NCBI GenBank assembly: GCA_965237865.1
Contig: OZ250164.1
Coordinates: 309,217-373,216, forward strand
Reading direction: 5' to 3'
DNA from: Dehalococcoidia bacterium
GTDB lineage: Bacteria > Chloroflexota > Dehalococcoidia > UBA2979
Length of the DNA: 64,000 bases
Shown: piece by piece, positions 11,223 through 12,121 of the stretch
Layout: every line of letters starts with the position of its first letter
Position numbering within the stretch: the stretch's first letter is position 1
Made by a program: the position numbers and the translations under genes
The notes under the pieces: generated by a model
What the model was told of the DNA's origin: nothing
What the model saw: the letters and a program-made list of their open reading frames with translations, nothing else
Databases searched by the model: none

Positions 11223-11732
11223 GTGGAGACGAGAATCCTCGACTGGGACGACGTGCAGGGCCTGCTCGCGGGGTTGAGCGACCGCCTCGGTGAGGGCTCG
11301 GTGGTGTGGGGCGTGCCGCGCGGCGGCAGCCACGTCGCCTCGATGCTCAGCGTGCGCGGCGTCCGCGTCGCGCTCTCGCCCGTGGAGGCGACGGTCGCCG
11401 TCGACGACGTGATCGACACCGGCCGGACTGCCGAGCGCGTGCGCCTCCGCTACGGCATCGAGACGCTGGCGCTCGTCACGCGCCACGAGGGCGAGCTGTA
11501 CTACCTCTTCCCCTGGGAGCGCGCGGAGCTCGATAGCGGGTTGGACGCGGACGCCCGGGACCACGTCACGAGGCTGCTGCTGCTGCTCGGCGACGAGCCG
11601 CAGCGTGCGGAGTTGCAGCAGACGCCCGATCGCGTCGTCGAGTCGTGGAAGACGCTGTACGCGGGCTACCTCTCGGAGCCCGGCGAACTCAAGGCGTCGC
11701 TGAACTGGTTCAGCGACGCACCCCGGAGATGA
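11223..11732 (+). CDS. type-I phosphoribosyltransferase-like domain fused in frame to the N-terminal helix of GTP cyclohydrolase I; frame terminates at a C4-run frameshift
   Basis: GTG at 11223 follows GGAGCG. VVWGVPRGGSHVASML and VAVDDVIDTGRT give the PPi loop and PRPP-binding motif. This is followed without a stop by DARDHVTRLLLLLGDEPQRAELQQTPDRVVESWKTLYAGY, the FolE N-terminal helix. The frame stops at 11730-11732. Confidence 0.55.
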   Translation: METRILDWDDVQGLLAGLSDRLGEGSVVWGVPRGGSHVASMLSVRGVRVALSPVEATVAVDDVIDTGRTAERVRLRYGIETLALVTRHEGELYYLFPWERAELDSGLDADARDHVTRLLLLLGDEPQRAELQQTPDRVVESWKTLYAGYLSEPGELKASLNWFSDAPRR

Positions 11733-12121
11733 TCGTCGTGCGCGACATCTCCTTCCTCAGCAGCTGCGAGGAGCACCTGCTGCCCTTCTTCGGCACGGTC
11801 GGCGTGGCCTACCTGCCGAACGACCACGCCCTCGGCGAGAGCAAGCTGCACCAGATCGTCAGCGTCGTCAGCCGCAAGCTGCAGAGCCAGCAGCGCATGA
11901 CGCGCGAGATCGGCGAGGTCGTCTTCGACGCCGAGCGCACGCGCGGCGTCGCCGTGCACTCCCGTGCCACGCACCTCTGCTTCGCCGCGCTCGGCGCCGA
12001 GCGCGAGGGCGTGACCGTCGAGGAGACGTGGCTGTCCGGCGCCTTCGAGGCGGACCCGGGCACGCACTCGCGCTTCCTCGAAGCGCTGGGCGACGCCAGG
12101 GACGGCGTCAGTCCGGCCTGA
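11723..12121 (+). CDS. folE: GTP cyclohydrolase I (FolE) catalytic core, in a different frame from the N-terminal part (frameshifted gene)
   Basis: [67 protein letters not shown]...ATHLCF is the FolE core. Inserting one C into the C4 run at 11721-11724 restores a continuous FolE. The motif is CEEH where FolE normally has CEHH. Confidence 0.6.
   Translation, partial: [132 protein letters not shown]

Follow-up and report, generated by a model that had tools for sequence, protein, structure and literature searches.

GTP cyclohydrolase I of the FolE/GCYH-IA type (PF01227; E. coli FolE, human GCH1, T. thermophilus 1WUR) is a T-fold enzyme with N-terminal helices and a Cys-His-Cys zinc site. Residues are numbered here as in the T. 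thermophilus protein (Tth), in which Cys108, His111 and Cys179 correspond to E. coli C110, H113 and C181, His110 to E. coli His112, and Glu150 to E. coli Glu152. In this enzyme His110 is the proton donor for opening of the ribose ring, Glu150 binds N1 and N2 of guanine, and Arg64, Lys134, Arg137 and Arg183 are the basic residues that bind the triphosphate; an H279S mutant, altered at the position equivalent to His110, has lost activity (PMC4005822). New chemistry has evolved on the FolE-like scaffold in the T-fold enzymes QueF and QueF-L. QueF lacks the FolE zinc site. The bimodular GTP cyclohydrolase I of plants, which is catalytically active as a whole, is a precedent for FolE domains that persist without some of their catalytic residues, because active sites form at subunit interfaces. 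Basset and colleagues are said to have found in 2002 that it consists of two tandem FolE domains, neither of which has the full catalytic set.

The closest relatives in architecture are phage proteins in which a phosphoribosyltransferase (PRTase)-like N-terminal domain (N-domain) is fused to FolE. They are encoded by Pseudomonas phage NP1 (Queuovirinae; gp36, YP_009285847.1), Vibrio phage VpKK5, and phages of Stenotrophomonas, Xanthomonas, Sphingomonas and Variovorax, and gp36 of NP1 lies in a queE/gat-queC/queD/folE/dpdA cluster. In at least 34 records of cultured phages, this N-domain underlies genes whose sole annotation is "GTP cyclohydrolase" (34-38 records, found with the stand-alone N-domain relatives P0135 and P0127 as productive queries; tblastn against phages with one N-domain alone as the query gave no match). 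The arrangement, which the original prediction had not recognised, is thus already on record. Literature searches turned up nothing specific on a PRTase-FolE fusion, and two papers on phage 7-deazaguanine are silent on the N-domain.

Here we describe a PRTase-FolE fusion from the window, by which we mean the whole 64-kb stretch of DNA that was analysed. The fusion is a genuine and conserved two-domain gene of soil Dehalococcoidia. Our preferred reading, to which we give a probability of about 0.55, is that the FolE site of this conserved fusion is degenerate, that its function would be led by the PRTase-like half, and that the gene has been broken in this strain by a genuine mutation.

Organisation of the fusion gene

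The frame-0 open reading frame starts at GTG 11223 and runs without a stop through the PRTase-like domain into the FolE N-terminal helices, as had been predicted, before ending at TGA 11730-11732 with a product of 169 aa (Table 1). Once a single base is restored, the Pfam GTP_cyclohydroI profile is matched over positions 3-177 of 179 (E=1.6e-46), and the locus reads as one gene, predicted to encode a fusion of ~299 aa between a mini xanthine-guanine-PRTase-like domain and a FolE T-fold. An AF2 model of the protein is compact and two-domained (pLDDT 90.9, pTM 0.71), with helices at residues 106-121, 134-145 and 153-158 in the linker and FolE N-terminal region. The premature stop overlaps a conserved in-frame Met codon of the downstream frame (ATG 11729-11731), and the 130-aa product from this ATG is already on record as a called gene; exact look-ups of the 169-aa product and of the AMP-binding protein of the window returned no gene position on record.

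Table 1 Features of the fusion locus in the 64-kb window.
Feature	Position	Strand	Remarks
Acyl-CoA synthetase (AMP-binding), upstream and co-directional	9553..11178	+	Pfam; 44 nt before fusion
AGGAG, Shine-Dalgarno-like	11214..11218	+	4 nt 5' of GTG start; direct sequence reading
PRTase-like N-domain, aa 1-105, minimised xanthine-guanine PRTase fold	11223..11537	+	
PPi loop GVPRGG of N-domain	11310-11327	+	
PRPP motif VAVDDVIDTGRT of N-domain	11394-11429	+	
Y..FPWE motif	close to end of N-domain (11223..11537)	+	
Linker and FolE N-terminal helical region (…RLLLLLGDEPQRAELQQTPDRVVESW…NWFS)	11538..11716	+	frame 0; Pfam and PDB alignments
1-nt deletion, G of orthologues missing	11716^11717	+	DNA alignment, tblastn, L048
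FolE T-fold core	11720..12121	+	frame 2; stop 12119-12121
ATGA overlap	11729..11732	+	direct sequence reading
CEEH	11765-11776	+	Glu replacing catalytic His, codon 11771-11773
Ser-Lys of FolE core	11840-11845	+	
Gln replacing Arg137	11852-11854	+	
Gln replacing Glu150	11891-11893	+	
His177 codon	11972-11974	+	
Zinc ligand Cys179 codon	11978-11980	+	
Leu replacing Arg183	11990-11992	+	

The break in the reading frame

A frame break within the gene had been proposed at a run of four C residues (11721-11724). The break itself is well founded, being supported by six loci in tblastn, and the core does continue in frame 2, but when the DNA is aligned with intact orthologues (L001, L002 and L003) the lesion falls elsewhere: a single G is absent between 11716 and 11717 (AGCGA-CGCAC against AGCGAGCGCAC), and it is this loss that moves the gene from frame 0 to frame 2. 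The C run reflects a synonymous ACG to ACC change only, and restoring the missing base yields SERTPEM, identical to the orthologues.

The loss of the G most probably reflects a real and recent mutation, and the two overlapping frames would then be a newly formed pseudogene or a split gene. The competing explanation is that an error arose during sequencing or consensus calling in a long-read metagenome assembly, while the gene is intact in the organism and the functional reading stands unchanged; we hold this to be a serious alternative with somewhat less than even odds. It is favoured by the presence of one lesion only in an otherwise perfectly conserved locus and by the lack of any rise in dN/dS in the window copy. 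Breaks elsewhere in the fusion gene of three close relatives from long-read-style assemblies (P0003, P0004 and P0005), sporadic frame breaks in other genes of relatives (L003 and L006), and the varying lengths of truncated cluster members point the same way. Against it, another assembly of this strain (L048) carries the identical deletion with no mismatches over 3,518 bp while differing from the window by two further indels, which makes a real mutation likelier than a random error. Moreover, the missing base lies outside any homopolymer, the G is present in five related metagenome-assembled genomes of almost identical local sequence, and no other break gains support across the ~20 kb of window sequence that could be compared. 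A systematic long-read error could nevertheless produce the same deletion in both assemblies, whose read sets may not be independent. Programmed frameshifting was rejected, since all orthologues are unshifted at the site and no X XXY YYZ slippery heptamer is present. Changes of GC3 phase at 51.8-53.9 kb, considered as possible further frameshifts, were traced to noise in the Pro/Ala-rich tail of an intact DnaX. The frameshift is of local interest only.

Active-site residues of the FolE half

The FolE T-fold domain of the window protein is recognisable by both sequence and structure, and it shares the N-terminal helices and zinc site of canonical FolE. Cys108, His111 and Cys179 are present, as predicted from CEEH and a later Cys, and are invariant across 160 of 160 aligned sequences. 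The proposed replacement of the catalytic His by Glu is likewise upheld by the FolE alignment; it is no misalignment, and the window protein and all eight members of its clade have Glu in place of His110. This clade retains Ser133, Lys134, His177 and Arg64, as in canonical FolE. The window protein differs in that Glu150 is Gln and, among the triphosphate-binding residues, Arg64 and Lys134 are kept while Arg137 is Gln and Arg183 is Leu. All four NCBIfam FolE models score it below their cut-offs (159 against 174, 146 against 162, 139 against 181.6 and 86 against 202 bits).

The pattern extends beyond the window. At 13 active-site positions, 80 of 83 single-domain FolEs and 23 fusions carry the signature RCEHHSKRQEHCR; the window clade has RCEEHSKQQQHCL, and the remaining Dehalococcoidia fusions are highly variable. 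Across 52 Dehalococcoidia fusions only R64, C108, E109, H111 and C179 are invariant, with N, K, R, S, M or E at His110, Y, L, N or F at His177, and D, Q or E at Glu150. The suggestion of a paralogue that may have altered chemistry pointed in the right direction and is strengthened by the changes at Glu150, Arg137 and Arg183 and by the sub-cut-off scores. Given the loss of His110, Glu150 and two of the four triphosphate-binding residues, our verdict is that the window protein is in all probability a FolE paralogue, either neofunctionalised or degenerate in its catalysis, and not a canonical GTP cyclohydrolase I.

One may postulate instead that the protein is a working GTP cyclohydrolase I, in which Glu takes over from His110 (E. 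coli His112) as proton donor and the PRTase domain is accessory. Glu may indeed serve as a general acid/base and allow residual or altered cyclohydrolase activity, and the retention of the zinc ligands, His177, Ser133, Lys134 and Arg64 is consistent with this, as is the role of the canonical fusions, which take the place of FolE in phage clusters for preQ0/7-deazaguanine DNA modification. Neither the window nor any of the loci contains a second folE, and the fusion could be the organism's only FolE if the genome is without canonical folE or folE2. We nevertheless consider this scenario unlikely: Gln at position 150, the loss of Arg137 and Arg183 and the failure to reach any NCBIfam cut-off argue against it, as does the loss of activity on mutation of the His110 equivalent (PMC4005822), and sister Dehalococcoidia lineages with N, K, R, S or M at His110 and Tyr or Leu at His177 are incompatible with conserved GTP cyclohydrolase I chemistry. 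No folate genes were found near the fusion, where the neighbours are genes of unrelated metabolism, and phmmer searches with 14 phage Que/DpdA proteins detected no que or dpd genes in the window or at any Dehalococcoidia locus.

These observations bear on annotation. The fusion proteins are automatically annotated as "GTP cyclohydrolase I", a label that is probably wrong in Dehalococcoidia and that would distort reconstructions of folate and queuosine pathways in an abundant uncultured soil lineage. As a T-fold zinc enzyme in which the metal site is kept while catalytic residues drift, the Dehalococcoidia clade also lends itself to the study of neofunctionalisation or of how pseudoenzymes evolve.

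The PRTase-like half and proposed function

The prediction of a type-I PRTase module of ~105 aa was well placed. The N-domain has the PRTase α/β core fold, a PPi loop of the RGG type and an acidic PRPP motif of the DDxxDxGxT type, and P32, R33, G34, G35, D61, D62, D65, G67 and T69 are invariant in its family. Its nearest relatives are xanthine/guanine PRTases. XGPRT/Gpt (1NUL/1A95, 6KP5) and the archaeal purine PRTase 1VDM share with it the type-I core, the RGG loop, an acidic PRPP motif with a catalytic-type Asp, and a Trp/Tyr…PW(E/D) motif, but at full length they have 140-153 aa. A profile-to-XGPRT alignment assigns the difference to one deletion of ~22 residues ahead of the PRPP motif and another of ~11 ahead of the Trp motif, about 33 in all and including the loop region, such that the N-domain lacks the complete set of loop and hood segments by which the base and PRPP are covered. 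This loss suggests that the N-domain may be non-catalytic as well. The window N-domain scores below the gathering threshold of Pfam PF00156 (15.1 against 26.3 bits), a profile matched at E<0.01 by 11 of 22 family members, and PADLOC assigned no defence family to it or to P0001, P0008 and P0031.

Under our preferred reading, the FolE half would keep its fold and Cys-His-Cys zinc site while having lost the canonical GTP cyclohydrolase I residues, and the selected function would now depend chiefly on the PRTase-like domain, in which the PPi loop, the PRPP motif, the Asp of catalytic type and the aromatic residue that stacks on the base are invariant or conserved. We infer from residue patterns that this domain may bind PRPP or a 6-oxopurine ribonucleotide, and that the zinc T-fold would act as an oligomeric scaffold for a purine- or pterin-like ligand other than GTP, probably with fewer phosphates. 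Full-length FolE topology and the FolE zinc site set the window protein apart from QueF, whose Pfam model it does not match; from the plant bimodular enzyme it differs in being PRTase-FolE rather than FolE-FolE, with no partner FolE domain known. The gene is under ordinary selection (dN/dS about 0.25, with 0.2-0.3 in both halves, against 0.14-0.34 in neighbouring genes).

A more ambitious proposal is a two-step enzyme in which the PRTase makes a 6-oxopurine monophosphate (for example, XMP from xanthine and PRPP) and the zinc T-fold opens or hydrolyses this monophosphate rather than GTP. Loss of two triphosphate clamps with Lys134 and Arg64 kept would fit a monophosphate substrate, the zinc ligands and adjacent Glu109 are invariant in 52 of 52 members, and the affinity of the N-domain to xanthine/guanine PRTases also accords with it. 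In the NKxD motif of GTPases, an Asp to Asn exchange, that is, a carboxylate-to-amide change, turns guanine into xanthine recognition, and Glu150 to Gln is a switch of this type. The presence of flavin/F420-type enzymes (two luciferase-like monooxygenases and a nitroreductase) among the neighbours of the fusion is a further point in its favour. We regard the proposal as improbable, however, because the pocket residues at His110, His177 and Glu150 vary within the degenerate clade, which speaks against one shared new chemistry; XGPRT loop segments are missing from the N-domain, the neighbourhood differs between subclades, and the scheme is without experimental precedent. Its fullest form, a new bifunctional enzyme in which the mini-XGPRT joins a 6-oxopurine such as xanthine to PRPP and the remodelled T-fold (Glu150 to Gln, two phosphate clamps lost) ring-opens the resulting 5'-monophosphate, is similarly improbable; if true, it would yield a pyrimidine intermediate, for example 5-amino-6-ribosylamino-2,4-pyrimidinedione 5'-phosphate, and offer a GTP-independent entry to the synthesis of flavin/deazaflavin or pterin-like cofactors.

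Distribution and origin of the fusion

An uninterrupted fusion ORF of 282-305 aa occurs at 40 of 40 Dehalococcoidia/Chloroflexi genome loci obtained from a scan with alignment A2, and clusters at 90% identity comprise about 70 close metagenomic relatives, mostly intact. Intact orthologues are found in short-read contigs as well as long-read assemblies. The suspicion that the fusion is an assembly chimera or mis-joined gene pair, and that a separate FolE begins at TTG 11541, drew on nothing beyond the frame break and is practically untenable, given a continuous ORF shared by genomes, short-read contigs and cultured phages, the single compact protein modelled by AF2, and orthologues that read CTG, ATG or CTC at the TTG, which is thus no conserved internal start.

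Synteny with the upstream acyl-CoA synthetase gene is kept at L003-L007 and L041, and the two genes may be co-transcribed; the window clade and the CE[KN]H clade have no synteny in common. The closest single-domain FolE is P0037, whose relatives look like Acidobacteriota. The phage fusions and the window clade share architecture, a length of ~290-300 aa, FolE fold, zinc ligands and the invariant N-domain motifs VPRGG, DDxxDxGxT and W..FPWE. In the phage proteins the canonical FolE signature is complete, and their genes belong to queD/queE/queC/dpdA clusters, whereas the window clade has four catalytic or substrate-binding substitutions and is chromosomal, away from que and dpd neighbours. Many phage-like contigs carry the fusion beside queC/D/E, three of them (P0029, P0058 and P0035) adjoining PTPS, radical-SAM and QueC genes, and a stand-alone form of the N-domain occurs in phage phiST, which has 7-deazaguanine DNA and is without DpdA. 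The mini-PRTase domain of phage FolE is a concrete candidate for guanine salvage or 7-deazapurine nucleotide formation.

The 52 degenerate fusions are monophyletic, and their neighbour is a near-canonical Dehalococcoidia fusion (L024). Judged by distribution rather than by a rooted tree, the chromosomal Dehalococcoidia clade appears to derive from canonical phage PRTase-FolE fusions. Identity within the degenerate clade is 70% in the N-domain against 55% in FolE, and among phage-type fusions 39% against 51%; the constraint on the two domains is inverted, with the PRTase-like half the better conserved in Dehalococcoidia and the FolE half in the phage proteins.

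Domain organisation of the fusion gene

The phosphoribosyltransferase (PRTase)-like part of the frame-0 open reading frame (ORF) reads into the start of the GTP cyclohydrolase I (FolE) domain, RLLLLLGDEPQRAELQQTPDRVVESW, without a stop codon, and the FolE core continues in another frame to 12121; this layout, described in the original prediction, is seen in both the sequence and the ORF list. With one base restored, the protein matches Pfam GTP_cyclohydroI over profile positions 3-177 of 179 (E=1.6e-46), and PF00156 (Pribosyltran) gives only a sub-threshold match over the PRPP loop. 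Every NCBIfam FolE model scores the repaired protein under its cut-off; beyond these, NCBIfam gave a single weak match, to xanthine PRTase.

AlphaFold2 returned a pLDDT of 90.9 for P0001, an intact orthologue 92% identical to the window protein, and the window N-domain alone was predicted with a pLDDT of 94.3. An end-to-end alignment of the N-domain profile with XGPRT of E. coli and Yersinia (E~1e-10) shows that the RGG loop, DDxxDxGxT PRPP motif and W..PW(E/D) motif are retained and that stretches of ~22 and ~11 residues are deleted. Residues P32, R33, G34, G35, D61, D62, D65, G67, T69, W98 and E99 are invariant in phage and Dehalococcoidia members.

Features of the fusion locus and the surrounding window
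Feature	Position	Strand	Remarks
SD-like AGGAG	11214-11218	+	5' of GTG 11223; read from sequence
Frame-0 ORF	GTG 11223 to TGA 11730-11732	+	sequence and ORF list
GVPRGG motif	11310-11327	+	within frame-0 ORF
VAVDDVIDTGRT motif	11394-11429	+	within frame-0 ORF
Frame-2 ORF	stop 12119-12121	+	continues 3' of frame-0 ORF
APH (497 aa, C-terminal DUF6285) and acyl-CoA dehydrogenase	12131-14817	-	4-nt overlap; Pfam
SelA (selenocysteine synthase)	14941-16350		complete; Pfam E=3e-127
REP/MITE-like repeat cluster	50795-51634		intergenic, between last nuo-like gene and ybeY/dnaX
Composite long ORF	51461-54124		real DnaX begins near 52.4 kb (VSQEVLYRKWRP…)
YbeY-like gene	~51.7-52.2 kb		strand opposite to DnaX

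A single missing base in the window copy

A DNA alignment with three close relatives (loci L001 and L002, both intact, plus L003) revealed a single G missing between 11716 and 11717 (AGCGA-CGCACCCCGGAG in the window vs AGCGAGCGCACGCCGGAG), and the restored reading, NWFSERTPEM, is that of the orthologues. The break had been placed in a C4 run, which proved to be a synonymous ACG-to-ACC change 5 nt downstream of the true indel. A tblastn frame-break scan of ~20 kb common to five related genomes found only one well-supported break in the window, backed by 6 loci. Both window ORF products have database entries from a 3,478,993-bp contig. At 90% identity their clusters comprise ~70 members, the majority intact (289-302 aa) and a few truncated at assorted lengths.

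A second contig, L048 (ERZ26167216, named 3.54x), equals the window over 3,518 bp except for two single-base gaps elsewhere, and the deletion at 11716/11717 is also present there, which disfavours a random consensus error; a differing indel pattern and low coverage suggest that L048 comes from other reads than the window. We therefore lean towards a real strain-level mutation. An assembly artefact, whatever the protein's function, is an explanation to which we give some credence while holding it doubtful, and a systematic basecalling error common to the window and L048 is less likely. Several other genes have frame breaks in L003 (6290, 6880, ~10010-10430, ~12600) and L006 (3650, 14830), whereas the scan found essentially none in L004, L005, L007 and L041; indel quality thus differs between assemblies of these MAGs, and truncated products such as P0003-P0005 should therefore not be taken for biology. 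The L003 and L006 breaks fall in otherwise conserved genes, and these assemblies are long-read-style.

Because the premature TGA overlaps a conserved in-frame Met ATG (11729-11731), the lesion produces a stop-start overlap, ATGA, which the AlphaFold2 model places in a loop joining the helical N-terminal part to the first T-fold β-strand; a split gene yielding two polypeptides is conceivable. The TTG at 11541, suggested earlier as a stand-alone FolE start, is not a conserved start, since the aligned orthologues have CTG, ATG or CTC there.

Distribution of the fusion and its phage relatives

Searching with the repaired protein recovered ~300-aa relatives that are full-length and 87-92% identical, along with many at 30-41%. 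A scan of species-representative genomes yielded 40 loci, all from Dehalococcoidia/Chloroflexi MAGs, with an uninterrupted fusion ORF in 40/40; the suspicion that the fusion itself was an assembly artefact can thus be set aside, and the architecture extends to Pseudomonas phage NP1 gp36. Where the motif is canonical, the fusion is a phage protein. NP1 gp36 (297 aa, subfamily Queuovirinae) lies within a queE / gat-queC / queD / folE / dpdA cluster, and three metagenomic fusions from phage-like contigs of 76-98 kb have PTPS, radical-SAM and QueC genes as neighbours.

Searched exhaustively, the N-domain on its own matched just 185 clusters among 1.84 billion representatives, whose lengths are bimodal, fusions having ~285-320 aa and stand-alone forms ~100-170 aa; when used as queries, stand-alone relatives matched "GTP cyclohydrolase" genes in 34-38 cultured phage records. 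Neither the phage 7-deazaguanine papers nor a keyword literature search mentioned this N-terminal domain. A structural match to the N-domain is BFVD M4T1R9, a stand-alone 142-aa 'phosphoribosyl transferase' of Cellulophaga phage phiST. The DNA of this phage, which is without QueC and DpdA, has 7-deazaguanine (PMC10516641), and the same paper makes no mention of M4T1R9. This mini-PRTase could make a 7-deazapurine nucleotide or salvage guanine. ToyH and TubE make a 7-deazapurine nucleotide.

Degeneration of the FolE active site

In T. thermophilus FolE numbering, Cys108, His111 and Cys179 are the Zn ligands; His110 donates the proton for ribose-ring opening, and neither activity nor complementation survives in the equivalent H279S mutant; His177 is the proton donor to N7; guanine is bound through N1 and N2 by Glu150, the ribose hydroxyls by Ser133, and the triphosphate by Lys134, Arg137, Arg183 and Arg64 (PMC4005822). 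We tabulated 13 positions across 160 sequences. The E. coli FolE row matched the published numbering at 12 of 13 sites, with Arg64 misaligned.

The signature RCEHHSKRQEHCR is carried by 80 of 83 single-domain FolEs and by 23 fusions. The window clade (eight sequences) carries RCEEHSKQQQHCL, and therefore His110->Glu, Arg137->Gln, Glu150->Gln and Arg183->Leu; the table and an independent human GCH1 alignment, which confirmed the residue calls, agree on the predicted catalytic His-to-Glu substitution. The signature is variable in other Dehalococcoidia fusions, with N, K, R, S, M or rarely H at His110, D, Q or E at Glu150 and Y, L, N or F at His177, while Ser133, Lys134, Arg137 and Arg183 also vary. 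Arg64, Cys108, Glu109, His111 and Cys179 are unchanging in Dehalococcoidia fusions.

Genomic neighbourhood

The window is core chromosome, with genes resembling uvrA, nuo-operon subunits, metG, recR and dnaX (named from translations as read, not family scans). Genes in the vicinity of the fusion encode a MaoC-like dehydratase, two luciferase-like monooxygenases, a nitroreductase and, 44 nt upstream and co-directional, an acyl-CoA synthetase; convergent genes downstream encode the APH-DUF6285 protein and acyl-CoA dehydrogenase, followed by SelA and MutS2. This order is kept in six related genomes, and the APH-DUF6285/acyl-CoA dehydrogenase pair occurs in 6/6. Both genes of the pair are split by assembly indels in L003 and L048. 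The complete SelA suggests that this Dehalococcoidia lineage makes selenoproteins.

Another set of genes is conserved around the fusion in the CE[KN]H subclade, comprising an amidohydrolase, PaaI-like thioesterase, MGMT, cyclophilin, enoyl-CoA hydratase and HIBADH-like dehydrogenase (assigned by reading sequences). In the CERH subclade (L032, L034-L038), the ~±4 kb around the fusion contains small paralogous genes (clusters 4 and 19) arranged in pairs that repeat in tandem, with up to 4-5 copies per locus. With 14 phage proteins (QueC/D/E/F and DpdA) and a canonical FolE as queries, phmmer picked up no que or dpd gene and no second folE in the window or any locus, and no PADLOC model matched the window N-domain, P0001, P0008 or P0031 (the last three being related proteins).

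Evolution and selection

In a distance-based, midpoint-rooted neighbour-joining tree of the FolE domain, 52 degenerate Dehalococcoidia fusions form one clade, at distances of 1.1-1.4 from canonical FolEs, compared with 0.6 among single-domain FolEs. Next to this clade branches L024, a Dehalococcoidia fusion that is near-canonical, with only Lys134 changed (to Asn), and that may represent the ancestral, still-active state. The L024 fusion is chromosomal (10001-10858 of its locus; signature RCEHHSNRQEHCR), and no que genes were found within ±10 kb. Mean identity in phage-type fusions is 51% for the FolE half vs 39% for the N-domain; in the degenerate clade it is 70% for the N-domain vs 55% for the FolE half. 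Among the positions that canonical fusions conserve and the degenerate clade has lost are those for catalysis and substrate binding in FolE, except Arg64 and the Zn ligands. The fusion gene is under ordinary purifying selection: dN/dS in the window clade is ~0.2-0.3 in both halves, in the same range as nine neighbouring genes (median 0.14-0.34), and the window copy has no excess of non-synonymous change.

These facts support the descent of a Dehalococcoidia-specific chromosomal clade from the type of canonical PRTase–FolE fusion that phages use for preQ0 synthesis, with the FolE pocket freed from GTP-cyclohydrolase constraint and the zinc site, fold and PRTase-like domain still selected. On the reading we favour, the protein would not be a canonical GTP cyclohydrolase I; the N-domain would bind PRPP or a 6-oxopurine ribonucleotide, and the T-fold/Zn domain would act as an oligomeric scaffold whose pocket accepts a purine- or pterin-like ligand other than GTP and with fewer phosphates. 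It is unlikely that FolE is still active with Glu as general acid, in a site also altered at Arg137, Glu150 and Arg183, and more improbable still that the XGPRT-like domain forms part of a new coupled PRTase/cyclohydrolase with a monophosphate substrate such as XMP.

Other features of the window

Candidate frameshifts in the DnaX tail were rejected, as the GC3 phase shifts stem from Pro/Ala-rich low-complexity sequence instead. Within the REP/MITE-like cluster, a ~156-nt unit occurs three times in direct orientation and a 20-nt hairpin (TGTGGGGGC-N4-GCCCCCAC) six times, along with a single inverted copy of 85 nt, 85% complementary.
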